A stretch of 64,000 nucleotides of DNA from an uncultured Planctomycetia bacterium. Its GTDB lineage: Bacteria > Omnitrophota > Gorgyraeia > 2-02-FULL-51-18 > JAGOUK01. The notes below the pieces were generated by a model that was given only the letters and a program-made list of their open reading frames with translations, was not told the origin of the DNA and did not search any database. Positions 10,701 to 43,523 of this stretch are shown here, one piece after another. Numbering within the stretch: position 1 is the first letter of the stretch; each line of letters begins with the position of its first letter. The translations under genes were made by a program, and so were the position numbers. The stretch lies in the NCBI GenBank assembly GCA_964430735.1, contig CAYSFB010000002.1, positions 222,027-286,026 of the forward strand, in the 5' to 3' direction.

Positions 10701-11047
10701 TGGCGCGTGTCGTACTTTTGCTGCGGGATCGTGTTCTGGAACGGCTCGTAGTAATGCGTCTCTTTGCGCTGATTCACTTTGAGGAAGGTGCGGAAGCCGC
10801 GCAGCGACGTCATCTCGTAAGAACGGTTGGCGGGATAAAACTGCAGGATCGCGTGGTCCTTGTCCGAAACGCCGAAGCTCGCGATACCCTGGCCGCGATT
10901 CACATAAAACGCCCACAGCGGAATTCCGAACGGACCGGCGACGCCGGGCAAAAAGTTCGAAAACGGCTTCGCCTCGTTGTAATTTTCGATGACAAACGAG
11001 CCGTTCGGTTCGGACGCGTACTGGGGTTTCTTGTCTCGGGGGTTCAT
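7712..11047 (-). CDS. Large cytoplasmic protein, 1111 aa; candidate GH94-superfamily (GH94/GH149/GH161-like) glycoside phosphorylase or six-hairpin glycosidase
   Basis: Long unbroken ORF with no signal peptide. The DWYDALNGLPGLLG segment resembles the catalytic DWND(A/G)LN region of GH94 phosphorylases. The size matches ~1100-aa GH149/GH161 enzymes. The family assignment is tentative. Confidence 0.4.
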   Translation of the reverse strand: MNPRDKKPQYASEPNGSFVIENYNEAKPFSNFLPGVAGPFGIPLWAFYVNRGQGIASFGVSDKDHAILQFYPANRSYEMTSLRGFRTFLKVNQRKETHYYEPFQNTIPQQKYDTRQAMRVQAQGFSIEESNQSLGLDIKVSYFGVPGEPFAALARKVVIQNKLVVPTEIEIADGLPAVVPFGLKEWFLKDMSRTVEAWMKCEITPGKDPVAHFKLKADPEDRPEYQAVDGTHFYTSFGESSSLKHRGKLFQPSIIVDPEVLFGTRLDFTEPQEFIGRTPFAPDAQVLENKTPCAFSFYKLTLEPEETVTLYTLIGEAAEGTKFSKGIARVRDPKFFAAKEREAREVVQRLQDPITTVSGSSRFDDYCRQTFLDNVLRGGFPHRMTGPSGDFVFHIYSRKHGDLERDYNRFVVQPTYFSQGEGNFRDVNQNRRSDVWFEPKVKDLNVRTFFNLIQPDGYNPLVVEQLVLTLESPRDFRKAAGKILAAAELAELEAFLAKPRTPGEIAKFAEKLPSVAKSRDAALPVIFGSLKRLDTARHGEGFWIDHWTYNLDLLESYLAVYPEELDNALWRDASYTYYESDHIVRPRSQKYVKIAGDKIRQFGATARDAEKAELIRSRASEPHKVRLNRGKGKVAHSTLAAKMLCVIANKFASLDPFGAGVEMESDKPDWYDALNGLPGLLGSSLSETYELLRWVRFLESALRRSRVKAREARVAVPAELAELLRKNELLARRCLASKAPSKHQDFWDATHTAKEKYWAATRLGFQGREVKIPFKALKKMLAAFSAKLEEGIGRAYDPAKETCPTYFENEMVEYKTVPGKKGGREVIVPKKFRQRRLAAFLEGPMHALRVEKDPVRAKQIYDHVRSSDLFDRKLSMYTVTSNLEKESPEIGRARIFSPGWLENQSVFLHMEYKWLLETLKRGLTSEFFTDLQAALVPFQDPKVYGRSIFENSSFIASSAFSNRKVHGTGFVARLSGSTAEFLDMWLRMNLGHEPFRLDAKGQLEFSLNPVLPDWMFTKEETPRRIQLRDGSTQTITLPKNAYAFVFMSQTLITYMNPKHASTFGPRRAVVKRMVFLDAQKKQVIVDGNTLGPVHAKALRDGQIRRIDCELG

Positions 11048-12601: not shown

Positions 12602-15526
12602 TCAAGAAACGGTGACCGGCAAGTCCTCGGAGCGCTGCGCCGGCGCAGCCGTAAACGTGAGATCCTTTGCAAAATCCGTCGTATAACCCGGCGCGGATCC
12701 GGGAACCAGCGTGAGCGTGTGCGTTCCGGCGGGAACGCGTTCGAACAAATAATATCCCTCGTCGTCCGCTTCAGCCTCCAGCGCGCCCAGTCGCACCTTC
12801 GCCTTCGCGACACCGGCCTCTTCCTTTTCCGCGTGGTTATTGCCGTTCGCGTCGACAAAGACGCGGCCGTTCACCGTGCGTTCGGCGGTCACCGCAAAGT
12901 CGAACCGGTACTGGACGCCCTCGCTCAACTCCAGCTGCTTGCGGATGGAGCCGACCGGCAGGTACCCGATGGGCAGCGACTTCAAGTCCAGTGTCATCGC
13001 GTGCGGGCCGGTCGCGACTTCGTCGAACCGGAAACGCCCGGACGCGTCAGAAACGCGCTGTTCCTTGCCGTCGAGGATGACTTTGACGCGGCCGACGGCC
13101 GTGTCGGTCGGATCGTACTTGCCGTTGCCGTTCAGGTCGTTGAACACAAGGCCCGCGATCGACGAACGCGACACGAGGCCAAAGTCCACGGACTTTCCGG
13201 CTTCGGCCAGTTCGACGTCGCGGCGCAGCGACCCGGTGACGGTATGTCCGTACGGAATTTTGTTGGGATCCAGGATGATCGTGGCGCGCTTGCCCCCGAT
13301 CGACGGCGTCTGGTAATTGCCCTGGGCGTCCGTCGTCACCTCCGTCCCGTTCGCGCGCACGATGAGGCCCGGCACGCCCGCTTCTTCCGGCTGGCGGCGT
13401 CCGTCGCCGTTCTTGTCCAGGTACACCGCGCCGAAGAATTTGGCCTGCGGCTCCCACCGGATCCCGGTGTCGTAGAGATACCGGACGCCGGTGACGATTT
13501 CGGCTTCGGCGCGCGCCTCGTTGATGCGGTTTTCGCCGCGCATGGCCGCGTACCGGCCGTCCAGGAAGAACTCCATATTCTCGAGCGTGTACGTCACCGA
13601 CCCCTGAAGCTCGAAGCGGTCTTCGCCGATCATGAAGCTGCGAAGGGATTCCGTCTCTTCCTCGTCGGTGTAACGCGCCGTGAGATCGGTCGTGAACGGC
13701 GTGTCCGCCAGCCGCGACCGGCGCGAAATCGCATACACCATCGACCGCGGGTGCGACACATCGTGGTTCAGGGTTTCTTCGAGCAGACTGATGTTGTGCT
13801 GATACGAAAAATACGTGTCCTTGAACAGCAGCGTCTGCATGCCGAGTCCGAGCGTGTTGCGGCGGTAGTTTGACTCCGGGTTCGACAGACTCTCGGTGTC
13901 GTCGTTCGAGAACCGGCTGTACAGCGAAACGCGGCGGTCGCCGATCGGGATGCCCTGCGTGTACGTGAGCGCCTGGCTCTTGGTGCGGTACGGGGAGATG
14001 AGGGCCGTTTCCTCATAATCCTTGAGGTCCGCCTGCAGCGACGACAAAGACGAAATCCGCCACTGGAGACTCGCGTCCTGCCGGGTGTTGAACCGGTCGT
14101 ACTCCGACGGCAGGAAAAACTGCCGGTCGCGGTACACGTCGAGCGCGAACCGCGCGTTGACCGAATCCGAAATATTCCACAAGAGGTCCGAGTTGATGCC
14201 CTGCTCGCCCTGGCCGCCGGGGTTGCCGACGACGGTGAAAAAACGCTTGGATGTGTCGCGCAGCTCGGACTTGAACTGCAGCCCCGGATAACGCCACGTC
14301 CCCGCGACGCGGTTCGAAAAATGGTCGCTGTCGTATCCCGTGTGGGTCGTCACGCCGAAATGGTCCGTCACCTTGTAGGCCTGGTCAAATTCAAAAGCCA
14401 TGTCGTTCAAGTCCTCCACCCGCGACTGGCCGTGCGCCTGCACGTAACCGAAGCGGTACTTGGCCGCCGGGTTGAGTTCGTAATCCACGAACCCGCCGCC
14501 CGCGTACGAATCGAGCGTCTCCTGCCCTCCGCCGAGACCGGTCGTCCCGAGCGTTCCCAGAATGCTGGTGAGTTCACGGCCGTAAAACGCGGTGTAGATA
14601 AACGGCTTTTTTTTGGGACGGTGATCCCATTGGACGCCGCGGAACCGGTACTGGGGCAAAATGAGCATGTCGGTCCTCATCTGCGTGTCGATCATCGACA
14701 GATCCGCGTCCTCGATCGCACCGTAATGAAAATCACTGATCCGCGCGGAGATCTGGCTGAGCTCGGGCTTGTTGTCGATCTCGCGGATTTCGGCATTGCC
14801 CGAAAATGCGCCGACCGGCGTGTCGCCGGTGACCTTGAAGCCCTGGCTGTAAGCAAGCGAGCTCTGGGCCAGCGTTTCGAAGTCGTTGCCCTGATAGTAC
14901 TGGGAACGGTTGTTGGTGTATTCGACCTTGAAGCTGTCGGCGCGTTCGATACGCTCTTCACGGCGTTTGACATACTGGGCGATGGATTTTTGCGGGATGA
15001 CGCGGATTTGGAGCGTCACGCGTCCTTCGACTTCCCAGATATGGACCACGGTGGTTCCGATCGCGGTGGCCTTCATCTGAAGCGCGCCCGGATTGATCAG
15101 GAAAAATTCGACTTTGTCTTCCGTCGTCGCGAGATAACGCTGAATGCCCCGGCCTTCGACCGTGGCGACCTGACCCAGCTCGAGGTCCAGCGGCCGCGTC
15201 ACGTTGCGAAGCTCGTCCATCGAGACCGTCACCGGATCCGGAACGCGGATGACCATTTCGTCCTGGTCGGCTTCGGTGGGCTCGAAGTATTTGGCGATGG
15301 GTCCGGAGGACTTCGTCTTGGTGCCTTCAAGAAACCCTTGAGGCCGAGTTTCGGCGGCTTCTTCGGGACCGCCGGAAGAGAACCGGTCGTTCCAGACGCT
15401 GTCCATTTTAAAAAACCGGGTGTTGGAGTCGGCAAAAGCGGGCCTTGCGGCGGCCAGAACCAAAAGGAACAGGAACGCAGCCGTTGAAGGAAGAAACAGC
15501 CGGAGGGGCCGGTGTTGCTGGATCAC
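12602..15526 (-). CDS. Large outer-membrane protein (usher-like candidate) with three C-terminal Cna-B/CarboxypepD_reg-like repeats
   Basis: The likely start is a GTG whose TG overlaps the chaperone TGA stop (GAGTGATCC), immediately before the signal peptide RPLRLFLPSTAAFLFLLVLAAARPAFA. The track's ATG at 15625 would overlap the chaperone gene by 100 nt. The middle region is beta-rich. The C-terminus has repeats GLVFNDLNGNGKYDPTD...GRVKVIL, GRVFVDANGNNHAEKEE...AKVRL, and YLDKNGDGRRQPEE. Confidence 0.6.
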   Translation of the reverse strand: MIQQHRPLRLFLPSTAAFLFLLVLAAARPAFADSNTRFFKMDSVWNDRFSSGGPEEAAETRPQGFLEGTKTKSSGPIAKYFEPTEADQDEMVIRVPDPVTVSMDELRNVTRPLDLELGQVATVEGRGIQRYLATTEDKVEFFLINPGALQMKATAIGTTVVHIWEVEGRVTLQIRVIPQKSIAQYVKRREERIERADSFKVEYTNNRSQYYQGNDFETLAQSSLAYSQGFKVTGDTPVGAFSGNAEIREIDNKPELSQISARISDFHYGAIEDADLSMIDTQMRTDMLILPQYRFRGVQWDHRPKKKPFIYTAFYGRELTSILGTLGTTGLGGGQETLDSYAGGGFVDYELNPAAKYRFGYVQAHGQSRVEDLNDMAFEFDQAYKVTDHFGVTTHTGYDSDHFSNRVAGTWRYPGLQFKSELRDTSKRFFTVVGNPGGQGEQGINSDLLWNISDSVNARFALDVYRDRQFFLPSEYDRFNTRQDASLQWRISSLSSLQADLKDYEETALISPYRTKSQALTYTQGIPIGDRRVSLYSRFSNDDTESLSNPESNYRRNTLGLGMQTLLFKDTYFSYQHNISLLEETLNHDVSHPRSMVYAISRRSRLADTPFTTDLTARYTDEEETESLRSFMIGEDRFELQGSVTYTLENMEFFLDGRYAAMRGENRINEARAEAEIVTGVRYLYDTGIRWEPQAKFFGAVYLDKNGDGRRQPEEAGVPGLIVRANGTEVTTDAQGNYQTPSIGGKRATIILDPNKIPYGHTVTGSLRRDVELAEAGKSVDFGLVSRSSIAGLVFNDLNGNGKYDPTDTAVGRVKVILDGKEQRVSDASGRFRFDEVATGPHAMTLDLKSLPIGYLPVGSIRKQLELSEGVQYRFDFAVTAERTVNGRVFVDANGNNHAEKEEAGVAKAKVRLGALEAEADDEGYYLFERVPAGTHTLTLVPGSAPGYTTDFAKDLTFTAAPAQRSEDLPVTVS

Positions 15527-16329
15527 TCGATCGTAATCTTTTTTTCCTCGACCAGCAGCGCGCCTTCGCCCATGTCGAAGGTGAACACGCCGTCGTAAAC
15601 TCCGGGAGCGAGGCGGCCGGCCCATTCGGTTTCTTGCGAGACGACGGCTCCGGCGCGGGCGTAGATCGTGGTGAGTTTGCCGCGGGCTTTCACGCCGCCC
15701 TCGAAGTCCATCAGGACGAATTCACCTTCCAGAGCGACCGCCGTGTTGCCGGTGTTGTGAAAAACGGTCTTGATCACCGCGGGACGGTTGCCTTTTCCGG
15801 GTGTGAGGGTCAATTCCTTGATTTTTCCTTCGCGCCGGATCGAGCCGGCGATGTCGACGTAAAAGAGCGATCCGATGCGTCCCGCGACCGTGACGCTTGC
15901 GCCCTCTTCGTTCTGCCCCATGCCGAGCGACGTCTCGAAAAACAGGATCGAGTACCGGGTGCCCGTCGAAGCGTCCGCGTCCGCCGGAACCGCGACGGTG
16001 TAATCGACGGTCTGCCGGCCGAAGGGTTCGATGGTCAGCTGACTGGGGTTGTAGGTGATCCAGGGCGAGGCGCTGTTCGGAAGCGTGCCGGCCGGAAAAA
16101 AGTCCTTGTCGCCGTTTCCGGTGTCGAGATATTCCCAGTCTTCGGTATAAACCTTCACGGTCACCGTGCCGTCGGTCGGATTCGAAATATGGATCTGTCC
16201 GGTTTTGGTTTCTCCGGCGGCGGCCTCGATCCGCACGCGCGCCTCGTCGATCCGGATCGTCGCCGCTTGCGCGGACGAAGCAGCCCACAGCAGGACCGCA
16301 AAAACCGCAAATATCCGATGTCGCATCAT
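15523..16329 (-). CDS. PapD-like periplasmic pilus-assembly chaperone
   Basis: Start chosen at ATGATG after a GGAG RBS, giving signal peptide MMRHRIFAVFAVLLWAASSAQA. The track's longer ORF starts at 16428. N-domain pattern RIDEARVRIEAAAGETKTGQIHISNPTDGTVTVKVYTEDW and IGSLFYV resembles PapD/FimC (..RVIF...L.I.N......L.Q.W...KLFYRP). It has two Ig-like halves. Confidence 0.55.
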   Translation of the reverse strand: MMRHRIFAVFAVLLWAASSAQAATIRIDEARVRIEAAAGETKTGQIHISNPTDGTVTVKVYTEDWEYLDTGNGDKDFFPAGTLPNSASPWITYNPSQLTIEPFGRQTVDYTVAVPADADASTGTRYSILFFETSLGMGQNEEGASVTVAGRIGSLFYVDIAGSIRREGKIKELTLTPGKGNRPAVIKTVFHNTGNTAVALEGEFVLMDFEGGVKARGKLTTIYARAGAVVSQETEWAGRLAPGVYDGVFTFDMGEGALLVEEKKITIE

Positions 16330-17421: not shown

Positions 17422-18027
17422 TTAAGCGGTCAATTCGATCTGAAAGGTAATGGTCGAAGAGTAGGTGCCGCCGGCCTGGTCAAAAGGGACGAATTCCGTG
17501 GCGCCGGCATTAGGATCGTTGGTGATGGCGTAGGTAAAAGCGACCGGGGTATAGCTGCCGGCCGGTTCACTCTGATAGATGATTTTGTTGTTGGCGATGA
17601 AGCTTCCGCGGGTACCAATGGAAGCGCCGGCAGGATAAGCTTGGCCGTCCTTATTGACGGGCCAAGGAGTCACGATGCAGGATCCGGCCGGAAGGGTCTT
17701 GGTGCCGTTGCTGAGGGCCGTCGCGGACTGGGTGAGGCGGAAGGGGCGGCCGGAAGAATTGGGATGTAGATAAACGTCGAAGTAATTCTCCCCTCTCATC
17801 GGGCCCTGGCCGGCGTCGGCCTTAAGGGTGCCGAAATTCATGGCGCTGGCGCCCCAGTTCGTCACAACCCCATCCTTATACTGGCGGATTTCGACGCCCA
17901 ATTCCAACACCGACTGGACCGTTGCCGAAAGCGGCACGGTGACCGAGCCTCCCGCCGCGTGGGCGGAAGCAGCCAGGAACAGCGAGGCTGCGAAGAGTTG
18001 GAGGGTTTTGAGCGTCTGCTTCATCAT
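17422..18027 (-). CDS. SCPU/Csu-like secreted fibre subunit, type B (copy B1)
   Basis: Signal peptide MMKQTLKTLQLFAASLFLAASAHA. C-terminal GGTYSSTITFQIELTA. About 60% identical to 18848..19480. Confidence 0.6.
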   Translation of the reverse strand: MMKQTLKTLQLFAASLFLAASAHAAGGSVTVPLSATVQSVLELGVEIRQYKDGVVTNWGASAMNFGTLKADAGQGPMRGENYFDVYLHPNSSGRPFRLTQSATALSNGTKTLPAGSCIVTPWPVNKDGQAYPAGASIGTRGSFIANNKIIYQSEPAGSYTPVAFTYAITNDPNAGATEFVPFDQAGGTYSSTITFQIELTA

Positions 18028-18098
18028 GACTTCCTTGGTTGAAGATAAATCCTAACGGAAATCTACATGACGCAGGGACCTGTTTCAAGACCGTCCCA

Positions 18099-18136
18099 AA
18101 ATAAAAACACCCCCGGGGTCGCCCCCGAGGGTGTTT
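18099..18136 (-). terminator. Rho-independent terminator after subunit gene A2
   Basis: Minus strand reads AAACACCCUCGGGGGCGACCCCGGGGGUGUUUUUAUUUUGGG: a GC-rich stem followed by a U-rich tract. It lies 43 nt after the A2 stop. Confidence 0.65.
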
Positions 18137-18178
18137 AAAGTTCCGGAGTTTTTCCGAAGAAAACCCCGAATCGACCGT

Positions 18179-18781
18179 TTAGAGGGTCGCGATCGTGTAA
18201 GTGATCGTGGACGAGTAGCTGCCAGCGGCCTGATCCGGCTGCACGGGCTGGAAACCCGAGAACGGAGCGGCGCCGCCCGCGGCGAAGCCCGCGATACCGT
18301 ACCACATTTCGATCGTGGCGCCGGTGCCGGAAGTGTTCGAGCGGTAGATTTCGACGCTGCTCATGATCGCGTTGCGAAGCGAGATCATGGTGTCGCCGGT
18401 GATATCGTTGCCGAGAGAGTCCTTCGCCGAAACGATCGACGCACCCATCGCCGGAGGCAGGGTGTTCGCGCCGCTGGTGAGGGCCGACATCGAGGAAACG
18501 ATGTTGTACGGACGGCTGGACGTGTTGGCGCCCAGGTACACGGCGTAGTTCTTCGGGCTCACAAGGGCGCTGAAGCCGTTGTTCACGAGCTGACCGAAGG
18601 CCATGGAAGCCGCCGGGGTGGTCAAGGGCAGGTCGGTGCCGACAGCGCGCTCGAACACACCCATCGTCAGGTCAAGGGTCTGACCGACGCTGGCTGAAAC
18701 GGCAACGCTTTGGGTGGTGGCCGCGAACGCCGGCATCGTCATCGATACCGCCGCTGCAAGCGCGATAAGGGTCTTCTTCAT
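18179..18781 (-). CDS. SCPU/Csu-like secreted fibre subunit, type A (copy A2)
   Basis: Signal peptide MKKTLIALAAAVSMTMPAFA. C-terminal GSYSSTITYTIATL. Paralogue of A1. Confidence 0.6.
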   Translation of the reverse strand: MKKTLIALAAAVSMTMPAFAATTQSVAVSASVGQTLDLTMGVFERAVGTDLPLTTPAASMAFGQLVNNGFSALVSPKNYAVYLGANTSSRPYNIVSSMSALTSGANTLPPAMGASIVSAKDSLGNDITGDTMISLRNAIMSSVEIYRSNTSGTGATIEMWYGIAGFAAGGAAPFSGFQPVQPDQAAGSYSSTITYTIATL

Positions 18782-18847
18782 TTCATTCCTCCTGGTGTAC
18801 TGACTAAGGTCCGTGACTGTTTAAAACAAACTTTTCCGAAACGGCCG

Positions 18848-19480
18848 TTACGATGCCAGCTCGATCTGGAACGTGATCGAGGACAGATAATTGCCCCCCG
18901 CCTGGTCCGCAGGGACGATCTGCGTCGATCCCAGCCCGCTGTCGCTCGTCACCGCGTAGGTCATCGCCACCGGTGCATAAAGCCCTGACGGGCCGCTCTC
19001 GTACAGAACTTTTCGCGTCGAAACAAAACTTCCTCGGCTGCCGATCGTCGCGCCGGACGGATACGCGGCGCCGTTCTTGTCCACCGGCCACGGCGTCACG
19101 ACACAGGCGCCGGCAGGGATCGTCGTCGTCCCGTTGCTGAGAGCCGCGGCGGCCTGGGTCAGCCGGTAAGGCCGCTGGGACGAATTCGGGTGCAAATAAA
19201 CGTCAAAGTAATACTCGCCGCGCATAGGGCCGTTCGTGACGTCGCTTTTCAGCAGGCCGAAGGCGATCTGCGATGCGCCGTAGTTGATCACGGTTCCGTC
19301 TTTGATCTGACGAATCTCGATCCCCAGCTCCAGCTGGGACTGAATGCTGGCCGACATCGGAACCGTGACGGTATCCGCTGCCAAAACGCATGCGCTGCTG
19401 TTCAGAAATAAGCTGAAGGCAGCAATTCCGGAACAGATTAAAAAAGCTCGATTAAAAGGGGTCAACATTAGCTTCATCAT
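18848..19480 (-). CDS. SCPU/Csu-like secreted fibre subunit, type B (copy B2)
   Basis: Signal-peptide-like N-terminus. C-terminal GGNYLSSITFQIELAS. Shares the internal motifs MRGE(N/Y)YFDVYLHPNSS and TPWPV(N/D)K(D/N)G with B1. An AT-rich promoter-like region lies upstream at 19481..19612. Confidence 0.6.
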   Translation of the reverse strand: MMKLMLTPFNRAFLICSGIAAFSLFLNSSACVLAADTVTVPMSASIQSQLELGIEIRQIKDGTVINYGASQIAFGLLKSDVTNGPMRGEYYFDVYLHPNSSQRPYRLTQAAAALSNGTTTIPAGACVVTPWPVDKNGAAYPSGATIGSRGSFVSTRKVLYESGPSGLYAPVAMTYAVTSDSGLGSTQIVPADQAGGNYLSSITFQIELAS

Positions 19481-19612
19481 TCAATTTGGAGATAGGGCAT
19501 TCTACTGCTTCGCCCCAAAAATAACAAGAAAATCTATTTTCTAAATAGTCATGTTATTTGGATAAATACTAAACTCGGTCGGAGGGATATTGGGGGTCAA
19601 ACAGGCTGCGAA

Positions 19613-20998
19613 CTACGAGAGAGAAGAGAGGGAGTACGTGGTCTCGGAGGTGTACTCGCCGCCGCTGGTGTCGCGGGGAAGCGTGAGGGTGTAATCGATC
19701 ATAAAATCGTCCGAACTGCCTTCCGAATCGGAAGTAAAGATGGCGGTGTCCCCTGCCTGAACGGGCTTCACGCTCATGACGGCCATTTCGCCCGTCCGGG
19801 CGCCGCTCATCACCAGCGTGAAGTTGTCCGGCGGCAGAATGCGGCCGCTTTCGTTGGTGAAGAGGCGCGACACTCGCTGAATCACCTGGTAGCGCTGCCC
19901 CGTATTGTTGTGGGCCTGAATATGCACCCGCCGAGTCTGCGCATCCCCTTCGTTCTTGAATTTGCCGAAGTTGAGGCCGCCGGCTGATTCATGCTCCACG
20001 TCGAGATAAAACAGGGTTTCGATTTCGAGGTCCAACGGCACCGTCACCGGCACGGCGAAGTCGGCCGATGCGTCGGATTCGACAAAGAATTCGATCGTGG
20101 ACCGGTACGGCCCGGCCGTAGCGGAAGCCACTTCTTCGCCGGTCCGGTACGCCACAGTAAAGGAGGCGGCGGAACCAGCGTCATCCGATTCATAAACCAG
20201 CGTCTGAGTTGTCGACAGCGGCTGCTCCTGTGCGACCACCTGCCCGGCATCCGCACGGGAGGCCAGCGCCAGGATGCCGCCCTCATTCATAGCTTGGCCC
20301 ATGGGACCGGACAGGCGGTCCGTCAGCCGCTGATACACCCGGTAACGGCCGCCGAGTCCGGCTCCGATGCGCACTTCGAGAGCGCCCGTGCCTTCCGGCC
20401 GCTGGCGCGTGATCCGGCCGAGACTCAAGGAGGATCCGCCGTTGACATTTTTGACGTCGAGGAAAAAGTCGGGACGAACTTCGGCGGTCACCTGAAGCAC
20501 CCGCGTCACCGTGGAGGCGCCTCCGTCGACGGGCTCCATCTGATACACGAGCTCGGAGCGGTAAACGCCCGCGGCATCCGTGGGTTGGGATTCGAGCGCG
20601 AAGACGAGCGCAAATGTCTCGGCCGAACCGCCGTTGTCGGAATCGAAGATCACCGTCTGACCGGGTTCCAACGCCGTCGGAAAAATGATCCCGAGACGCC
20701 CCCCGACCGAGCTGGGGCTGAACACCTTGACCGCTCCCGGAGACAGGGTCTGGCCGCGCTCATTGAGGAAAGGGCTCATCTGCTGCTGGACGATCCGGTA
20801 GCGCCGGCCCTCGTCGTTGGCGACCGTCAGTGTCACTTCTTCGTTGCGGGTGGGCTGGCCGGGTTTGGCCGGGGTAAAACGGACATCGCGTCCCCCGCGG
20901 TCGGGAAGGACCGAAAAGTCGAACTGCGCCCATGCCGTCTGGGCAAAGCCCGCGCAGGCGCACAGCAGAAGCAGGAGGGATTTGAAAGGAAGCTTCAT
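19613..20998 (-). CDS. Secreted protein built from three tandem SCPU-like domains; candidate tip adhesin or pre-polymerised subunit
   Basis: Start at MKLPFKSLLLLLCACAGFAQTAWA after an AAGG RBS; the track ORF starts 12 codons earlier. There are three ~150-aa repeats. Each carries an RYR(I/V)(V/Y)Q motif and ends in an SCPU-like G-x-Y-x-S motif (AGVYRSELVYQME, AGPYRSTIEFFVE, GGEYTSETTYSLS). Confidence 0.55.
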   Translation of the reverse strand: MKLPFKSLLLLLCACAGFAQTAWAQFDFSVLPDRGGRDVRFTPAKPGQPTRNEEVTLTVANDEGRRYRIVQQQMSPFLNERGQTLSPGAVKVFSPSSVGGRLGIIFPTALEPGQTVIFDSDNGGSAETFALVFALESQPTDAAGVYRSELVYQMEPVDGGASTVTRVLQVTAEVRPDFFLDVKNVNGGSSLSLGRITRQRPEGTGALEVRIGAGLGGRYRVYQRLTDRLSGPMGQAMNEGGILALASRADAGQVVAQEQPLSTTQTLVYESDDAGSAASFTVAYRTGEEVASATAGPYRSTIEFFVESDASADFAVPVTVPLDLEIETLFYLDVEHESAGGLNFGKFKNEGDAQTRRVHIQAHNNTGQRYQVIQRVSRLFTNESGRILPPDNFTLVMSGARTGEMAVMSVKPVQAGDTAIFTSDSEGSSDDFMIDYTLTLPRDTSGGEYTSETTYSLSSLS

Positions 20999-21041
20999 GA
21001 CTACAACCTTACCTTGTAAAAGGCCGGCTTGCAAGGGAGGA

Positions 21042-23897
21042 CTAGAATTCTCCGTCGAGGCTGAAGCGGAACAGATGCTCCGTGTCGACCGTGGGAAGCG
21101 AGAAGGTAGTGACGGAATAGGCGGACACCGGAAGCGCGTCGGAGCCTTCGTAGAAGGTCTGGCCGAACACGCCGTACTCCATGGTCAGACGCGTGTTGGT
21201 GTTGATCCGATAACGCAGACGCGTGTAAATGTTGTGGTTGTCCTCGAATTCAAGCTCGGTGTAACCGGACGCGATCAGCTTGGGGATATCCCCCAGATGG
21301 CTGTGGGTGTAATCGAAGAAAGCCGACCACCGGTCGTCGATCTGCCAATCGATGCTGATTCCCTGATGTTCGACGTTATCGTCGATCGGACCCCAGAGCG
21401 TGTACGTGTTCTGCGCCGCGTGGAAGATGAACTGCAGGTCTTCGGTATGGCGGTACGTGATGCGCTCCTTGACGATCGAGAAGTAGTCGTAGGGAGGCAG
21501 GTCAAAAATGTCCTGACGGTACAAAAACGCCTGGTTGCGGTACAGCCACCAGCTGGGCGTGTTCGGGTCCTGGAACATCGTGGTCGCGTACACGTTGTTG
21601 AGCAGGCCGCGCGGAAAGTCCGGAATGTCATTGGTGTATTCGAAGGTTCCGGAGAGCGTCCACTGATGGGTCGGCTCCCACTGGAGCCCCTGGCCGAAGG
21701 AACGGCGGTTCGCGTTGAGACCCGGATCGATCATGCTGTTCTCGTAGTAGATCCCCTCCTTGAGCGCAGGGTCGTTCAGCGCCGGCGAGTTGAAGCCGGA
21801 GATAAAAGGCTCGCGGTCGCTGAGCGTCTTGGGAAGGATGTGGAAACGCATGAAGTTCTTGAACGTCCAGTCCTGCGCGAACTTCCAAGTGGTCTCGTCG
21901 CGGATGACGTTTTCGATGAAGCTGTTGGAATCGGTGTCGCGGACGTGGCGCAAGTCGAACAGGTTGTCCACGCCTTTGTCCGGGCTCGACGTCGCCAGAT
22001 TCAACCGCGCGACATAACGGCCGTAATCGACGCCGGTTCCGATCTTAAACGGTTCGACGTCGGGCGGAATCTTCGCCCAGGTGATGTGCGTCCCCCAGAA
22101 TTCGTCGTCCCGGAGCGAAGTGTAATTGGACAGCGTTTCTTTGAACTCCGTGTCCACCCACGTGAAGTCGCCGTTGACACGGGTGATGCCGGATTTGGAA
22201 TCGCCGACGTGCGAAACGAATCCGCCCACATAAGCCTGGCCTTCGTAAGCCGTCTGGAACGAGCTCAAGCGGTCGAGGTCGTCGCGCGAACCGGCCATCT
22301 GGCCGTACATGTAATCGGTTTCGTTGGTGTAATACTTGGTGTCGATCGAAATCACCTGGTTGTACGCGTCCGGTTCCCGGTCGATCAATCCCACCCGGTA
22401 GGTGTAGGTCGATCCGAGCATCCACTGCTCGGTGACCTGATGCTTCAGCCGCACCACGCCCGGAATGTTATCGAATTCCTGATAATCGTCCCACAGGCCG
22501 TACCGGGACGCGATCATCATTCCCAGATAAGTTCTGCCGAAATCGGCTTCGACCGCACCGCCGCGGAGCAGCGTCAGGTAATTGCCCTCGGAATCCTTGG
22601 CATAAAACGCTTCTTCGTCGCTGTAATAGCCGCGGCGGATCACCGGAGACCGGGCGATCGGCACGCCGATCGGGTTGAACTTTTGAAGCGGCTCCCACTG
22701 TTCCAACCACGCCGAGTGCTCCCAGAAGTCTTTGCGGTTCGACAGCTGCAGCGGATCGTCCGTCGTCATCACCTGGTTCTGATCCGCCAGCGCGAAGAGC
22801 CGCACATGCCAGATGTCGCCCTCGTGATCCCACCAGGCCTTGCGCAGCGGACGGAACTCGTAGTCGATATCCTGGGCCGGCACGTTGTACGTGTTGAAGT
22901 TGCTGCCGATCCCGAACGCGTCGTAAATACCGTGGACGGTGTAGGGCTGAGTGGCGCCGTTTTCGGCCTCGAGCTCCGGCGTCGCCATGGAATTACCGGC
23001 ACGGCTCTTGACGATCGTGGGGATCGTGGAGTTGTTGGGGCCCCAGTATTTCTGTTTGATGCGGAAGGAATCGGCTCCGCCGACGCTGGGGACTTCGATT
23101 TCGCTGGTCTGACCCACATACGACCAGGGATCGGCGACGATCTGGACAAAAACGGAATCCTGCTTCGTCACCTGCGAGTCGATGTCGAGACGGTACTGGC
23201 TGTAAATCGCCGGATCGAAGGTGTTGTACTGGCGGTCGCCGAACAGGTAGTGGAAGTCGCGGTCCTGAAGGTCGGAGTTGGAATCGTTGAGCGAAAAGTT
23301 CCGGTTGCGGCCCGCGCCGAACGCCGCGCGGTAAGTTCCCGAAACGCGCGTGCGGGAAGCGATTTCGCGGTCGATCGCGTCCATGTCTTCATAGTTCTGG
23401 TCGATCACTTGCTTGGGATCGGGCGCAGGCACGGCGGCGGCAGGCTTGGCGGCGACAGGATTGACTGCGGCCGGCCTGACTGCGGCCGGGGCCTGGACGT
23501 TGCGGACCGGAGCGGATTCCGTCGCCGGACTCTTGGCCGGCGTTATATTAGAGGAGGAGGTGGCGGCTGTCGACTTGGGCGCAACCGCGGGCGATGCTGA
23601 TTTGACCGAAACCGGCGTACCTTGGCTTGCAGCCGGCGCGGAAGCGGTTACCGCGGGCTTGCCAGGCTGTGCCGCGGTGTGTTCGGGCTTCCAAAATGCG
23701 GCTTCACGCGCGCGCTTGAGATGATCCTGAATTTTGGAATCGAGGTCGTTGAGCTCTTTATCGAATTCTTCGAACTCGGCGTTGGATTGAGCCGCTGAGA
23801 CGGGAGCGGCACCGACTGCCTGCCACAGGAAACAGGCCGCCAGCAAGAAGCTGAAAGATTTGAGCGGACGAATGGAAAAAGAAGTTCCGGAGTTCAT
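21042..23897 (-). CDS. Large outer-membrane beta-barrel protein, ~951 aa, with an N-terminal coiled coil and an Ala/Pro/Ser-rich linker
   Basis: Start chosen at MNSGTSFSIRPLKSFSFLLAACFLWQAVGAAPVSAAQS (signal peptide). The track's 23941..24071 extension would overlap the upstream gene. The C-terminus ...FRFSLDGEF ends in Phe, as outer-membrane barrels usually do. The protein is rich in aromatic/Gly beta-strand patterns. Confidence 0.55.
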   Translation of the reverse strand: MNSGTSFSIRPLKSFSFLLAACFLWQAVGAAPVSAAQSNAEFEEFDKELNDLDSKIQDHLKRAREAAFWKPEHTAAQPGKPAVTASAPAASQGTPVSVKSASPAVAPKSTAATSSSNITPAKSPATESAPVRNVQAPAAVRPAAVNPVAAKPAAAVPAPDPKQVIDQNYEDMDAIDREIASRTRVSGTYRAAFGAGRNRNFSLNDSNSDLQDRDFHYLFGDRQYNTFDPAIYSQYRLDIDSQVTKQDSVFVQIVADPWSYVGQTSEIEVPSVGGADSFRIKQKYWGPNNSTIPTIVKSRAGNSMATPELEAENGATQPYTVHGIYDAFGIGSNFNTYNVPAQDIDYEFRPLRKAWWDHEGDIWHVRLFALADQNQVMTTDDPLQLSNRKDFWEHSAWLEQWEPLQKFNPIGVPIARSPVIRRGYYSDEEAFYAKDSEGNYLTLLRGGAVEADFGRTYLGMMIASRYGLWDDYQEFDNIPGVVRLKHQVTEQWMLGSTYTYRVGLIDREPDAYNQVISIDTKYYTNETDYMYGQMAGSRDDLDRLSSFQTAYEGQAYVGGFVSHVGDSKSGITRVNGDFTWVDTEFKETLSNYTSLRDDEFWGTHITWAKIPPDVEPFKIGTGVDYGRYVARLNLATSSPDKGVDNLFDLRHVRDTDSNSFIENVIRDETTWKFAQDWTFKNFMRFHILPKTLSDREPFISGFNSPALNDPALKEGIYYENSMIDPGLNANRRSFGQGLQWEPTHQWTLSGTFEYTNDIPDFPRGLLNNVYATTMFQDPNTPSWWLYRNQAFLYRQDIFDLPPYDYFSIVKERITYRHTEDLQFIFHAAQNTYTLWGPIDDNVEHQGISIDWQIDDRWSAFFDYTHSHLGDIPKLIASGYTELEFEDNHNIYTRLRYRINTNTRLTMEYGVFGQTFYEGSDALPVSAYSVTTFSLPTVDTEHLFRFSLDGEF

Positions 23898-23940
23898 GGA
23901 TATTGAGAATTTTACAACAGTGTTCGGAATAATGCGATAA

Positions 23941-25890
23941 CTATCTATCGTCAAAAGGGTTAAAACCCTTCCACGCAAAAATGCCGTACGCCGTGCCCGC
24001 GACGGAACCGGTGCGGTTGCCGGCCGGCGTACGCCAGCCGTGGCCCGTTTCGACGTCTCCGGCAGTGGCATATGGCAGACATCCGCGGCCCTGGCCGACG
24101 CGCGACAGGCTCGAGATGATCATTTTTTGCAATTCGTTGAGATAGAAGTTGATTTTGTCCCGGTAATACGCCGCTTTTTCCGCGTTGCCCGCCGCTTCAA
24201 AATATTTTTCCAGAATCCGGAACGTGACGACGGCCTGCGCCGTCCACTCGGACGACACGACGCCGCCGCGGCCCTGGTTCTGCGGCTTGGCGAAGTCGAA
24301 TCCCGTGACGCGCACCGAGCGTCCGTCAGGCCGGTCAAAGTTGACCTCGACGCGGCAATGCTCTTCCGCGAATTCCATGATCCCTTCCGGGTCGAACTGC
24401 GCTTCGGCCAGCCGCGCCGGGCCGATCGCAGCGATCGACCAGCTGAACGTGTCAGTCGCAATGGTTGCGTCCCCTTTACCGCGCTTGAACGCGCCGCTCG
24501 TGCGGTCGGCCGCATGCTTCATCAGCCACGCGAACAATTCCTCCTGCGCCTTGAGATAACGCGCGTCCTGCGTGAGCCGGTGCAGCATCCCGAAAAACGC
24601 GTACGCGTCCAGGTTGTGCTCGGTGCTGAACCACTCGGTCTTCGGCCCGCCGCGCAGTCCGCGCTCCGGGTCGCGCGCCTGCAGCTCAAGCAGCCAATTC
24701 CCGATCGACTGCGCCAAGCCCTGAAACGCGGTGTCGCCCGTCATCCGCTGGTATTGCAGAGCGGCGATGCCGATCCAGACGTTGGGACCGACGTGCACAT
24801 TCCACTCGACCGGCTCGCCCGAGGGAGCGTCGTACGACGAGATATAAGCTCCCTCGGATTTCTTGGCGCGATCCCGGTAAAACGTCAGAATGCGACGCGC
24901 GTTGTCATTTTTTTGAAAAAGTGTGAACGCGATCGCCGCGACGGCCTGGTCATAGGTGTACGCGATCCCCTCGAGCTTCGGATCCCCTTCGTAGCTGGGC
25001 AAAAGACCTGTCTGCGTGTTCGCGTGGCGCTCAAGCCAGGAAACAAGCTGGGTGAGAACGGCTTCCTCTTTAAGACCCGAGGATTCGGACGCGGAATGGA
25101 GCGTGACGCGTCGGTCGGCGCTTTCTTTCTGGATCAGCGTGAGCTGGTTGCGCAGATCACTCTCGCGCTTGAGCGCCGCTTCGAGTTCCTGGTGAAAAAA
25201 TTCCGCCTGGTCTTCCGTCACGCCCTCCGCCGACATCGCCTGCGTGCTGCGCGCCTGCTGTTCCTTGGCCGCCTTGAGATCGAGCGCGAGTTTGCGCTGG
25301 CGCGACGCCATTTCTTCGAGCCCGCGGATGAGATCGTCGCGCCCTTCGGCCGACGTGACGATCGAAGAGACGAGGCGGCGGTTTTCCATCAGCAGATGAA
25401 TCTGGTTGAACGCCTGTCCGACGACGACCGCGCACAGGAACAGCACCGTGCCGATGAAAAACCGCGGGATGAAGCGGCGGATGCGCGCGTAACGAAAGAT
25501 TTTTTGGGCGACCCAGGATTCGGCGGTTTCGTACTGGACGCCGACCAGGTGGACGGAGCGGCCGTCTTCGTCTTTGCGGGAGAGCCATGCGACATGCGAA
25601 GTGACGGCGATGGGTTTGGGCCGGAACGGGGCGTGAACCAGGAGATCGAGCGTTGCCTGCCGCGATTCGAGGTCGGCGGCTTCGGTCGGCGGAAGCGAAC
25701 GGAATTCGAGCATCATGCCGCCAAGACTGACGTTGCGCGTAAAGCCCTGAAGCGAAACGGACGGCGCGGACTGACGGGGATGCCGGAGAACCATCTCGAC
25801 GGGAAAAACGGTGTCCATCCGGACATACCGGCGGCGCTCGGGTCCGGAGGCGTTGGGGTCGATCGCGCGCGGCTCGTCGGAGGTCGGCAT
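23941..25890 (-). CDS. PilZ-domain (c-di-GMP receptor) protein fused through one TM helix and a coiled coil to an (alpha/alpha)6 glycoside-hydrolase-like periplasmic domain
   Basis: PilZ motifs RRYVRMDT and NVSLGGMMLEF (RxxxR ... D/NxSxGG). TM helix FFIGTVLFLCAVVVGQAF. Coiled coil at residues ~180-260. The C-terminal 380 aa have a six-hairpin glycosidase-like pattern (GIAYTYDQAVAAIAF, WIGIAALQY, NLDAYAFFGM). The exact GH family is unresolved. Confidence 0.6.
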   Translation of the reverse strand: MPTSDEPRAIDPNASGPERRRYVRMDTVFPVEMVLRHPRQSAPSVSLQGFTRNVSLGGMMLEFRSLPPTEAADLESRQATLDLLVHAPFRPKPIAVTSHVAWLSRKDEDGRSVHLVGVQYETAESWVAQKIFRYARIRRFIPRFFIGTVLFLCAVVVGQAFNQIHLLMENRRLVSSIVTSAEGRDDLIRGLEEMASRQRKLALDLKAAKEQQARSTQAMSAEGVTEDQAEFFHQELEAALKRESDLRNQLTLIQKESADRRVTLHSASESSGLKEEAVLTQLVSWLERHANTQTGLLPSYEGDPKLEGIAYTYDQAVAAIAFTLFQKNDNARRILTFYRDRAKKSEGAYISSYDAPSGEPVEWNVHVGPNVWIGIAALQYQRMTGDTAFQGLAQSIGNWLLELQARDPERGLRGGPKTEWFSTEHNLDAYAFFGMLHRLTQDARYLKAQEELFAWLMKHAADRTSGAFKRGKGDATIATDTFSWSIAAIGPARLAEAQFDPEGIMEFAEEHCRVEVNFDRPDGRSVRVTGFDFAKPQNQGRGGVVSSEWTAQAVVTFRILEKYFEAAGNAEKAAYYRDKINFYLNELQKMIISSLSRVGQGRGCLPYATAGDVETGHGWRTPAGNRTGSVAGTAYGIFAWKGFNPFDDR

Positions 25891-25906
25891 GCGTTTATCT
25901 TAACAT

Positions 25907-25924
25907 TGGTATAATGCGGCCATG
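25907..25924 (+). promoter_or_regulatory. Extended -10 promoter (TGgTATAAT) only 6 nt upstream of the ATG of the DUF481 gene; predicted leaderless mRNA
   Basis: ttGGTATAATgcggccATG. There is no Shine-Dalgarno sequence. The spacing from the -10 element to the ATG fits a transcription start at or next to the start codon. Confidence 0.4.
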
Positions 25925-26905
25925 CAAATCATTTTGATCCAAAAAATCCGCCGCGCGGCGCTGGCGGCGGCATGCTCCGCACTCCTCTGTTCCGGAGCGG
26001 ACGCGGACGAGATTTTTCTTCAAAACGGTGATCGGATCACCGGCGAAGTGGTCGAAGCGACCGACACGACGGTGACGCTCCGGACCGAAAGCCTGGGGAC
26101 CGTGGTGATCGACCGGGCTTTTGTCCGCGAAGAGCTGCCGGCCGCGGAACACGAGATCCCCGACCCGCCGGCGGACCCCGCTCCCGAACCGGAACCTCCC
26201 GCTCCCGCCGCACCGTCAGCCGAGACGCCCGAAGTCGTCGTCGAAAAGCCCTGGCACGGCAGCGTGTCCGCGGGCATCAACGCGCGCAAGGGCAACACGT
26301 CCAGCGAATCCGCGTCGGGCCGCTTCAACCTGAGTCGCCGCAAAGGGCCGGACGAGCTTTTTCTCAACGGTGACACTTACTTCGCGTCGTCCGAGCGCCG
26401 GATGACCGCGCTCAAGATGCTGGGCGGCGTGCGGTATGACCACTATTTTGAACCGGGCAACCGCGGCTGGTACGGGCTGGGCCGGTTCGAAGCGGACCAG
26501 GACCGCTTCGCGGACATCAACCAGCGTCTCATTCCGGGCGTGGGGCCGGGCTACGCTTTTTTCAACAGCGAGGACTTCAAGATCAAGTTCGAGACGGCGG
26601 CGGGTTTTTCGCAGACCAATTTCCGCGACACGACGGACAACCGGTTCGAGGCGATCCTGATCCCGCGGTTTTTCTTCGAATCCCGGATCTACGGCCAGTC
26701 GCGGTTCACGCAGGACGTGAACGTCTATGCGCCGCTCAACGAGGCCAACGGCTACCGCGTCCGGTCCGAAAGCACCGTGGAGGCGCCGTTCTTCGACCGG
26801 CTCAAGATACGCCTCTCGCTCATCGACGACTACAATTCCAACCCCTCCGCCGGCGCCGAAAAAAACGACATCCGCCTCATCTCCTCCGTCGCCTACTACC
26901 TCTAG
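25922..26905 (+). CDS. DUF481-family (YdiY-like) outer-membrane beta-barrel protein
   Basis: Signal peptide; Pro-rich linker PDPPADPAPEPEPPAPAAP; an acidic/aromatic beta-strand-rich C-terminal 230 aa typical of DUF481. Confidence 0.55.
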   Translation: MQIILIQKIRRAALAAACSALLCSGADADEIFLQNGDRITGEVVEATDTTVTLRTESLGTVVIDRAFVREELPAAEHEIPDPPADPAPEPEPPAPAAPSAETPEVVVEKPWHGSVSAGINARKGNTSSESASGRFNLSRRKGPDELFLNGDTYFASSERRMTALKMLGGVRYDHYFEPGNRGWYGLGRFEADQDRFADINQRLIPGVGPGYAFFNSEDFKIKFETAAGFSQTNFRDTTDNRFEAILIPRFFFESRIYGQSRFTQDVNVYAPLNEANGYRVRSESTVEAPFFDRLKIRLSLIDDYNSNPSAGAEKNDIRLISSVAYYL

Positions 26906-42427: not shown

Positions 42428-42440
42428 ACTGCCCTCTTGA

Positions 42441-42650
42441 AACCGGACACCCTCCCCTCCTAGCTAAAAAGGGAGGGATTACTGGGGAAAGTACCCGGTT
42501 TATACTTGCGGGCCATGAGGAACTCTTTTCATTATTTATATCACAGTTCATGGGCCGCGAAGGCGGGAGCTGTCACAAAATACTGTTAAGACTAGGGCCT
42601 GACTGCTGACCGCTCCCTTTTTGGGTTACTGGGGAGGGCGCCTAGTTTAC
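42441..42650. repeat. ~210-bp direct repeat, copy 1, immediately upstream of TPR lipoprotein gene 1
   Basis: About 96% identical to 43311..43520. It contains the hairpin CCCTCCC-N14-GGGAGGG and an identical 24-codon ORF (MRNSFHYLYHSSWAAKAGAVTKYC) on the plus strand. Confidence 0.8.
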
Positions 42651-43520: not shown

Positions 43521-43523
43521 GGC

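Follow-up and report, generated by a model that had tools for sequence, protein, structure and literature searches.

To our knowledge, the effectors of c-di-GMP act on cytoplasmic or membrane-embedded targets, and few of them, such as LapD and Alg44, relay the signal outward. Alg44, the Pseudomonas alginate co-polymerase, has an N-terminal cytoplasmic c-di-GMP-binding PilZ domain, a single transmembrane (TM) segment and a periplasmic C-terminal domain, and its partners are AlgE, a barrel of the outer membrane, and an enzyme that acts on polysaccharide in the periplasm. The protein considered here, which we call PilZX, resembles Alg44 in this layout and in its setting. The periplasmic part of Alg44, however, is membrane-fusion-protein-like (HlyD-like), whereas PilZX carries an enzyme-like barrel there, on the same chain, and Alg44 activates a glycosyltransferase (Alg8), while no synthase was found at the PilZX locus. 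The cellulose synthase system offers a second resemblance, as the PilZ domain of BcsA and the GH8 enzyme BcsZ place a PilZ switch and a periplasmic (alpha/alpha)6 glucanase in one glucan pathway. LapD is the paradigm of cytoplasmic c-di-GMP binding relayed via TM helices to alter what a periplasmic domain does (PMC3032545). It senses c-di-GMP by a degenerate EAL domain, has GGDEF and HAMP domains besides, crosses the membrane with two TM helices, and uses its periplasmic domain to sequester a protease; LapD and PilZX are not homologous, and the likeness is functional only.

The window, the whole 64,000-nucleotide stretch of Omnitrophota DNA that was analysed, contains one gene for PilZX (Table 1), and no second copy of the PilZ or barrel domain was found elsewhere in it. 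From N to C terminus the parts of the protein are a PilZ domain, one TM helix, a helical stalk of ~105 aa and an (alpha/alpha)6 barrel of ~375 aa. A PilZ domain, one TM segment, a helical region and an (alpha/alpha)6 barrel had already been claimed in the sequence-only reading of this DNA, and Pfam, hydropathy and an AlphaFold2 (AF2) model (pLDDT 89.6, pTM 0.80) agree that the architecture is real. An identical protein is present in public assemblies. A database search gave 720 full-length homologues, a relative occurs in 380 species genomes, and the architecture is phylum-wide in the Omnitrophota. Among 81 full-length genes, taken from different species, the whole architecture and both PilZ motifs recur in 80-81, so that they are not a product of chance. 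The PilZ-TM-stalk-barrel combination is thus conserved across the Omnitrophota, and it has not been described before.

Table 1. Features of PilZX and its surroundings, in coordinates of the window
Feature	Position	Strand	Description and basis
PilZX gene	23941..25890	-	649-aa bitopic inner-membrane protein; end coordinate includes the stop codon; ORF list
PilZ domain, aa 18-125	25516..25839	-	Six-stranded beta-barrel with one inserted helix; Pfam PF07238
RxxxR c-di-GMP-binding motif, R20-R-Y-V-R24	25819..25833	-	Read from sequence
[D/N]xSxxG motif, N53-V-S55-L56-G57-G58	25717..25734	-	Read from sequence
Single TM helix, aa ~144-165	25396..25461	-	Hydropathy, K/R bias; runs on unbroken from the C-terminal helix of PilZ
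Periplasmic helical stalk, aa 166-271	25078..25395	-	AF2 helices to 183, 185-220 and 226-271; pLDDT 85-93
Periplasmic (alpha/alpha)6 barrel, aa 275-649	23944..25068	-	Unclassified six-hairpin family
Divergent intergenic region, 31 bp	25891..25921	.	Coordinates of the two start codons
Divergent DUF481 outer-membrane protein gene	25922..26905	+	Pfam PF04338, E 3.8e-39
N1, 951-aa secreted large outer-membrane beta-barrel	21042..23897	-	43 nt downstream of PilZX, same strand
N2 (461-473 aa) and three ~200-aa paralogues, N3a-c	17422..20998	-	Signal peptides; "fibre" candidates
N5, ~1000-aa surface protein	12602..15625	-	SdrD_B and CarboxypepD_reg Ig-like domains (Pfam)
N7, cytoplasmic GH161 beta-1,3-glucan phosphorylase	7712..11047	-	Distal end of the cluster; PDB sequence search

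The N-terminal domain matches PF07238 with an E value of 3.9e-7 and a score of 30.8 bits (gathering score 22.5), over aa 18-125 of the protein and positions 1-90 of 102 of the profile. In the AF2 model, six strands (30-36, 47-54, 58-64, 80-85, 94-108 and 111-120) lie within aa 30-120, the C-terminal helix begins at aa 125, and pLDDT is ~88-92. A single-sequence phmmer search of the PDB with this domain gave no match, and a family profile was required to reach the c-di-GMP receptor MotI/YpfA (5vx6, E 1.3e-4). The residues R20-R21-Y22-V23-R24-M25-D26-T27 can be read directly in PilZX, their RxxxR aligning with RRQYVR of c-di-GMP-bound MotI, and N53-V-S-L-G-G58 aligns with NISAGG of the same structure. 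The first motif is present in 80 of 81 species-level orthologues, the sole exception being a gene cut by a contig edge; the second, as [DN]x[SGA]xxG, is present in all 81, at a spacing of 33-34 residues from RxxxR, and G58 is invariant (90/90 sequences). The canonical motifs on which the sequence-only reading relied (RRYVRMDT and N-V-S-L-G-G) are therefore present and kept, and the key PilZ residues are not missing on proper alignment. As far as sequence can tell, the cytoplasmic PilZ domain of PilZX bears every determinant for c-di-GMP binding. The window ORFs that were scanned include no GGDEF, EAL or HD-GYP gene; c-di-GMP signalling does exist in the Omnitrophota, for which GGDEF domains and small pilZ genes have been reported near giant genes (10.1101/2023.11.21.568195). 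In about one third of database entries the start codon is placed at the Met just past RxxxR, which hides the c-di-GMP motif.

The C-terminal domain is all-helical over aa 275-641 in the AF2 model. Its conserved pocket residues are S299, Y313-D314, G368-P369-N370, E424, D480, D532, E548 and Y607. Across 161 domain copies, D314 is kept in 136 of 144, E424 in 141 of 144, D480 in 136 of 141, E548 in 135 of 138 and Y607 in 130 of 133; each of these five residues stands at the start of an inner helix in the model, and four carboxylates (kept in 94-98% of copies) and a tyrosine form a family-wide pocket at the N-termini of the inner helices. About 1,000 relatives of the barrel can be detected, some of them inside proteins of 2,000-7,900 aa, and the large databases hold no name for the family. 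The family is undescribed and normally exported, both as signal-peptide proteins and as modules in the extracellular parts of giant proteins. Cellobiose-2-epimerase-like and GH76-like modules have been reported from extracellular segments of giant Omnitrophota proteins, where they were found only by structure prediction (West-Roberts et al., 10.1101/2023.11.21.568195). These modules probably belong to the same domain family as the PilZX barrel, although they sit on secreted giant proteins, and the PilZ-TM-stalk fusion is absent from that preprint, which has only small separate pilZ genes.

The gap between PilZX and N1 contains no terminator-like site, and the two genes are probably co-transcribed. 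The structure of N1 was predicted from database homologues; the protein matches outer-membrane barrels only generically, and it could serve either import or export. The divergent DUF481 gene and the 31-bp gap that separates it from PilZX, both claimed earlier, are borne out by the coordinates and the Pfam match; the gap leaves too little room for each gene to have its own promoter, a search of it for sigma-70-like promoters found none, and in the synteny table none but the closest relatives (L005 and L006) have this arrangement. N2 and N3a-c form one family by iterative HMM search and have no Pfam matches, just a weak below-cut-off match to Pam-pilin-C, while N5 is syntenic in nine loci. N7 matches two PDB entries over its full length (9qqk, E 3.9e-231; 9h8v, E 7.9e-231), with GH149 as its NCBIfam relative, and in nine other loci it comes directly after PilZX, or after N1 or the secreted barrel-domain protein of the same cluster. 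GH158-like, GH116 and ABC importer genes flank PilZX orthologues. A chaperone-usher or Csu-like pilus was considered for N1-N5 and rejected, since there are no usher, chaperone or pilin Pfam matches and the barrel similarity of N1 is generic.

PilZX had also been said to head a surface-fibre locus. This holds in one clade, that is, in ~30 of 82 loci, but elsewhere the neighbours are unrelated housekeeping genes, and we reject the surface-fibre link as a family-wide trait. Even there the genes look like a locus for beta-1,3-glucan utilisation, not a pilus operon: exported GH158-like enzymes and GH116 occur together with the GH161 phosphorylase, an ABC importer for sugar and a large outer-membrane barrel. 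Given the housekeeping neighbours in distant clades, the beta-glucan link may be lineage-specific.

Our reading of the whole, to which we assign a probability of roughly one half, is that c-di-GMP controls a periplasmic glycosidase barrel from inside the cell, with beta-glucan as the substrate in this lineage. In such a mechanism, c-di-GMP would bind the cytoplasmic PilZ domain, binding would alter the conformation or dimerisation of the PilZ-TM-stalk helix, and this change would switch the periplasmic enzyme in its activity, its reach or its contacts with partners; the inside-out direction is a reasonable one to draw from the anatomy of PilZX. The barrel would be a glycoside hydrolase, probably inverting and of the MmpH/GH15 type, with D314 as the putative acid and E548 as the putative base. 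Its likely substrate in this lineage would be beta-glucan, because PilZX lies upstream of the outer-membrane barrel N1, in a locus where sister genomes also have genes for exported GH158-like beta-1,3-glucanases, GH116, a GH161 beta-1,3-glucan phosphorylase and a sugar ABC importer. A bolder version, which we offer tentatively and regard as possible though on balance improbable, is that PilZX is the first case in which a PilZ domain acts directly, through the inner membrane, as the gate of a glycoside hydrolase in the periplasm, that the barrel is a new GH family found also on secreted and giant proteins, and that in these ultra-small, host-dependent bacteria c-di-GMP turns on the periplasmic digestion of captured, possibly prey- or host-derived, beta-glucan.

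A helix that is continuous across the membrane could transmit in either direction, and PilZX might instead be an outside-in or coincidence sensor, in which the barrel binds glycan, its pocket being kept for ligand recognition, and a signal passes inward to shift the c-di-GMP affinity of PilZ or its contact with a cytoplasmic partner. The neighbouring sugar ABC importer could provide this partner in its ATPase, in which case uptake would be tuned to both glycan supply and c-di-GMP. PilZX does stand within a utilisation-type locus without an obvious dedicated regulator in sister genomes, and the ABC importer loci that were inspected lack an ATPase gene of their own. We nevertheless consider this unlikely, as transporters are not adjacent to most family members and the known role of PilZ domains is to receive signals, not to emit them. 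Moreover, the pocket residues are equally kept in secreted stand-alone proteins and in giant-protein modules that have no signalling partner, and therefore catalysis fits better than sensing.

The topology assumed in the inside-out reading agrees with several lines of evidence. The TM segment of PilZX is flanked by six K/R residues on its N-side and two on its C-side; exactly one TM segment is found in 81 of 81 orthologues, with an N-side K/R excess in 67 of them. Stand-alone relatives of the barrel mostly have a signal peptide or lipobox, and a paralogous copy is found on secreted proteins of 1132-1782 aa in the same locus type. The one TM segment, the K/R bias and the exported barrel relatives all support the earlier claim of an N-in/C-out protein with a periplasmic C-domain. 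A C512-C604 disulfide was dropped as proof of the periplasmic site; the two cysteines are invariant in the fused clade, and only there.

The stalk bears on whether a signal crosses the membrane at all. A coiled coil of ~80 aa had been claimed here, of which the helical stalk stands while the length does not (~105 aa by AF2). In the model, one unbroken helix extends over aa 125-183 and includes the TM segment, and the distance from the PilZ motif to the TM segment is 81-97 residues in the 81 orthologues, which we call fixed. The spacing from the TM segment to the start of the barrel is 121-219 residues across the family, the stalk itself being ~20 residues less. Variable stalk length is tolerable for a coiled-coil relay and is equally expected of a passive spacer. 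This last point favours a constitutive enzyme for which the PilZ domain is a tether, only localising or clustering the protein (at a pole, or in an envelope-spanning complex with N1) at high c-di-GMP, with no transmembrane signal. The close linkage of PilZX to N1 in one clade points the same way, and localisation or dimerisation that depends on c-di-GMP is known behaviour for PilZ proteins, the dimers of Alg44 being an example. The chances of such a tether seem to us slight, however, since the rigid single helix and the fixed distance between PilZ motif and TM segment suggest mechanical coupling, and since the main modes of the TM-to-barrel spacing differ by 7 or 11 residues, steps by which helical register would be kept.

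The remaining question is what the barrel does. Its description as a GH-like domain was right as to the (alpha/alpha)6 barrel, but not as to a known GH family, as there is no curated match in Pfam or NCBIfam. The best Foldseek matches are GlcNAc-2-epimerase and cellobiose-2-epimerases, and with an epimerase as the top match, the class of enzyme does not follow from the fold. The barrel might be no hydrolase but a periplasmic sugar epimerase or isomerase, or else a lyase or transglycosylase, by which c-di-GMP controls the remodelling of a glycan that is secreted or part of the envelope. Comparable enzymes of the Alg44 system are AlgG, a periplasmic C5-epimerase of alginate, and the lyase AlgL. 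Distant relatives have sub-threshold Pfam matches to GlcNAc_2-epim and C5-epim_C (and also to GH88 and GH76), and similar modules are labelled cellobiose-2-epimerase-like in the giant-gene preprint (10.1101/2023.11.21.568195). We find a non-hydrolase quite improbable all the same, as the adjoining genes are catabolic (phosphorylase, beta-glucosidase, importer) and the barrel has no family-invariant histidine, H425 being present in 97 of 145 copies and H617 in 79 of 130, against 94-98% for each of the four carboxylates. Enzymes of the AGE/cellobiose-2-epimerase superfamily, which have the (alpha/alpha)6 barrel in common with PilZX, use a conserved histidine pair for catalysis, and as no histidine is invariant in the barrel family this class is not favoured.

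Among glycoside hydrolases, the GH76 alpha-1,6-mannanases share the (alpha/alpha)6 barrel, but where they have the catalytic Asp-Asp (D136/D137 of 6SHM), the alignment puts the conserved pair G368-P369 of PilZX, and the first of these positions, Gly in 136 of 145 covered domain copies, is never Asp or Glu. The Pfam GH76 profile (PF03663) does not match PilZX, relatives give sub-threshold matches only, and a PDB profile search gave an E value of 0.0023. With Gly-Pro in place of the catalytic Asp-Asp and no family profile match, GH76 membership is rejected. The inverting hydrolases of the GH15, GH125 and MmpH type (clan GH-L-like) also have an (alpha/alpha)6 barrel, and one of close structural similarity to that of PilZX, while neither Pfam nor the PDB gave a GH15 or GH125 sequence match at E <= 1. 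In MmpH, the putative acid is D47, in the alphaA-alphaB loop, and the base is a late Glu, E262 (PMC9883506). D314 of PilZX stands at the alphaA-alphaB junction and E548 opens a late inner helix, which would fit the described positions of D47 and E262. MmpH (a methylmannose-polysaccharide endo-alpha-1,4-mannosidase, PDB 7QSJ) nevertheless has only 12% sequence identity to the PilZX barrel, and it is a soluble cytoplasmic actinobacterial enzyme without the PilZ domain, TM helix and stalk.

Least probable, and to our minds very doubtful, is that PilZX is an accessory of a polysaccharide or fibre secretion machine, a c-di-GMP-activated inner-membrane co-factor that combines the roles of Alg44 and a BcsZ- or AlgL-like enzyme and whose periplasmic barrel edits or clears nascent polymer exported via N1: the order of PilZ, TM segment and periplasmic domain is that of Alg44, and secreted paralogous ~200-aa proteins are encoded downstream of N1, but neither the scanned ORFs of the window nor the syntenic loci include a gene for a glycosyltransferase or synthase, and what the locus does encode is catabolic (GH161 phosphorylase and GH116, besides an importer that has a solute-binding protein).

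If the inside-out reading is correct, a PilZ domain and an enzyme-like barrel in the periplasm, joined by one continuous helix, would give second messengers another, simple way to act from the inside out, and the architecture is compact enough for reconstitution. Assigning an activity to the barrel family, with its D/E/D/E/Y pocket, would annotate many proteins together, because the family numbers ~1,000 relatives with a conserved pocket, including the modules of giant proteins. The Omnitrophota are ultra-small bacteria that probably depend on hosts, and the phylum is poorly understood. As the architecture is nearly universal among them, PilZX probably serves a core envelope or glycan function, and it may give the cell a switch, operated from within, for a carbohydrate enzyme in the periplasm.

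The gene that we call PilZX has exactly the coordinates that the sequence-only reading had given it, lies on the minus strand and encodes 649 aa, and our genome scan found relatives encoded in 380 species genomes, almost all labelled Omnitrophota. AlphaFold2, run on a 90-sequence alignment, gave a confident model (mean pLDDT 89.6, pTM 0.80) that places six beta-strands at residues 30-120, one unbroken helix with the transmembrane (TM) segment inside it at 125-183, two more long helices at 185-220 and 226-271, and an all-helical domain at 275-641. As modelled, a single uninterrupted helix leads from a predicted cytoplasmic c-di-GMP receptor domain across the membrane, and a helical stalk then carries the exported barrel, which resembles an enzyme. 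The layout first proposed was accurate apart from the stalk, which had been put at ~80 aa and is about 105 residues in the model.

Features of the window discussed in the text
Feature	Position	Strand	Details
PilZX	23941..25890	-	649 aa
DUF481 gene, divergent from PilZX	25922..26905	+	Pfam E 3.8e-39
N1, mechanical ORF	21042..24071	-	1009 aa; overlaps PilZX 3' end by 131 nt
N2 and three paralogues	17422..21034	-	secreted
GH161 beta-1,3-glucan phosphorylase	7712..11047	-	1111 aa, full length; E 3.9e-231 to PDB 9qqk
Signalling cluster	1302..6220	-	far end of the window
RHS-repeat/ILEI-domain gene	44563..55572		3669 aa
PD40/DPPIV_N gene	43524..44603
Low-GC patch	42000..46000		GC 0.47-0.50 vs ~0.61 elsewhere

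The two motifs originally taken as canonical for PilZ, R20-R-Y-V-R24-M-D-T and N53-V-S-L-G-G58, are both present, and Pfam places a PilZ domain at residues 18-125 with 30.8 bits (gathering score 22.5; E 3.9e-7). The key residues also hold up on alignment: a profile of the family's N-terminal domains matches MotI/YpfA (5vx6), a solved c-di-GMP receptor, at E 1.3e-4, with RRQYVR of 5vx6 paired with the family's RRYVR and NISAGG with D/N-V-S-x-G-G. Among 81 full-length genes, drawn from the species-representative loci of the scan, RxxxR is encoded in 80, the sole exception being truncated at a contig edge, and [D/N]x[S/G/A]xxG follows 33-34 residues later in all 81. From its sequence, the domain looks competent to bind c-di-GMP. 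The RxxxR arginines are absent from 32 of 90 public protein annotations, yet the DNA encodes the motif in 80 of 81 loci; they are missing because the start was called at the Met immediately after the motif, and several absent Pfam PilZ labels have the same origin.

Hydropathy gives a single segment at residues ~144-165, within the modelled helix and flanked by six K/R on the N-side and two on the C-side, in agreement with the one TM helix predicted earlier. Exactly one hydrophobic segment is found in all 81 orthologues, 81-97 residues past the second PilZ motif, with a K/R excess on its N-side in 67 of the 81. To function, the PilZ domain has to be in the cytoplasm, and with one TM segment the barrel should therefore lie outside. 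Exported relatives lend independent support to this predicted periplasmic location: most stand-alone barrel proteins (370-500 aa) have a clear signal peptide or lipobox at the N-terminus, signal-peptide proteins of 1132-1782 aa open with a PilZX-type barrel in four syntenic loci, and further copies of the domain are embedded in proteins of 2,000-7,900 aa. In a preprint on giant Omnitrophota genes, structure prediction placed cellobiose-epimerase-like and GH76-like modules in extracellular segments of proteins of this kind (10.1101/2023.11.21.568195). C512 and C604 are invariant among relatives carrying both PilZ and barrel, and not beyond them.

The C-terminal two thirds of PilZX has no Pfam match, and NCBIfam adds nothing. 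All Foldseek matches in the PDB were (alpha/alpha)6 proteins with 10-16% identity; they included GlcNAc-2-epimerase, 5Z3A (a GH15 isomaltose glucohydrolase), cellobiose-2-epimerases, MmpH, GH76 and GH144. The (alpha/alpha)6 fold proposed for this glycoside-hydrolase-like barrel stands; it matches no curated GH family. The sole detectable sequence-level link is a marginal one to GH76 (profile E 0.0023), and we reject membership because the catalytic Asp-Asp (D136/D137 of 6SHM) falls on G368-P369 in every such alignment; among 161 domain copies from 147 representative proteins, this position is Gly in 136 of the 145 copies covering it and acidic in none. More distant relatives give only sub-threshold Pfam matches, spread over GH88, GH76, GlcNAc-2-epimerase and C5-epimerase, and the database sources searched hold no name for the domain. 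We take the barrel to represent an undescribed family within the six-hairpin superfamily.

The barrel pocket is acidic and strongly conserved. D314 (136/144 covered copies), E424 (141/144), D480 (136/141), E548 (135/138) and Y607 (130/133) are retained, also in copies within giant proteins, and the model puts every conserved motif at the N-terminus of an inner helix, where the active sites of six-hairpin enzymes lie. D314 and E548 occupy places in the chain that may be analogous to the acid and base of MmpH, which uses an Asp in the alphaA-alphaB loop and a late Glu in an inverting GH15/GH125-like mechanism (PMC9883506). The barrel could be a non-hydrolytic enzyme, epimerases being among the structural matches; the AGE-type histidine pair is probably not conserved, since no histidine is invariant in the family (H425 in 97/145 copies, H617 in 79/130). 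Most probably it is a glycoside hydrolase.

Synteny was compared across 82 loci with iterative profiles. In a clade of at least 43% identity (about 30 loci), the genes lie on one strand with tiny gaps in a stable order: SBP, two permeases, GH2C-like, x204, GH2C-like and PilZX, followed sometimes by GH116, then by N1 (a secreted outer-membrane beta-barrel protein) and either the N2/N3 to N5 series or GH161. The 413-aa GH2C-like enzyme is nearest to GH158, an endo-beta-1,3-glucanase family (E 7.8e-12); signal peptides are present on GH2C-like enzymes and x204 and absent on GH116, and no glycosyltransferase was seen in this locus type. Its make-up points to a locus for capturing and using beta-1,3-glucan more than to a pilus operon. 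The GH2C-like enzymes, to which both our analysis and Omnitrophota papers give the label "GH2 catalytic domain", lie upstream of PilZX in ~28 loci (L001:5896-9939 and equivalents), interleaved with the ~200-aa secreted x204 proteins.

The window's sub-clade (with L005 and L006) has the upstream half replaced by the divergent DUF481 gene, across the 31-bp gap already noted from sequence. Clades further removed (37-41% identity) have unrelated genes around PilZX, among them HypD/HypF, a TPR-transglutaminase protein, endonuclease III, M20 peptidase, PFK and divergent type-IV-pilin-like genes. The claim that PilZX heads a surface-fibre locus therefore holds in one clade only; the link is lineage-specific, and PilZX probably functions independently of the "fibre" cluster.

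Within the window, N1 almost certainly starts with the Met at 23897: this start is followed by a signal peptide, agrees with a 951-aa public gene call and leaves a 43-nt gap to PilZX. There follow a 461-473-aa secreted protein (N2) and three ~200-aa secreted paralogues, a family of 35 ORFs in 13 loci with no Pfam match and only a weak Pam-pilin-C hit, under cut-off, then a ~300-aa protein and a ~1000-aa protein with SdrD_B and CarboxypepD_reg domains. The GH161 gene, missed by Pfam, ends the cluster that PilZX begins; in nine other loci GH161 lies in the same cluster, directly after PilZX, N1 or a secreted barrel-domain protein. The gene after N1 in L009:8707-12108, L013:12806-16702, L023:12782-18130 and L028:14919-18314 encodes a secreted protein (1132-1782 aa) whose N-terminal ~400 aa are a PilZX-type (alpha/alpha)6 domain. 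Elsewhere, the low-GC patch spans the 3' end of the RHS-repeat gene and the next gene, and resembles a polymorphic-toxin tip that was exchanged, with cargo downstream of it. The signalling cluster encodes a CHASE-PAS histidine kinase (1002 aa), an HTH_17 response regulator and a receiver-HisKA-HATPase hybrid kinase, none with a GGDEF or EAL domain.

Binding of c-di-GMP reorders the RxxxR loop and C-terminal helix of PilZ domains. In PilZX it would be expected to do the same and, because the PilZ C-terminal helix continues as the TM helix, might shift how the stalk packs or dimerises; the periplasmic enzyme could then differ in activity, in reach or in its contacts with partners. Such inside-out control is the best-supported reading, in which we infer both the regulatory mechanism and the enzymatic activity. 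It resembles LapD in logic, although PilZX lacks the GGDEF-EAL-HAMP module. None of the window's ORFs that were scanned is a GGDEF or EAL gene; for the phylum, there are reports of both GGDEF domains and small pilZ genes. The TM-to-barrel spacing ranges over 121-219 residues, and its main modes (151, 162, 169, 176-178 and 184) lie 7 or 11 residues apart. A coiled coil that keeps its register would fit this pattern, and a spacer would fit it just as well. PilZX might also be a constitutive enzyme with the PilZ domain only a localisation tether. The same topology could instead carry signals inward, as an outside-in glycan sensor. An Alg44/BcsZ-like accessory subunit of an export machine fits least: the layout is that of Alg44 (PilZ, TM helix, periplasmic domain), but PilZX has neither the MFP domain nor a synthase partner.

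A non-exhaustive literature search turned up no earlier account of a PilZ domain joined to a six-hairpin domain in the periplasm. We regard PilZX as a PilZ receptor whose output across the membrane is new and belongs to an unclassified enzyme family, not as something categorically new; its architecture is unusual, phylum-wide and directly testable.
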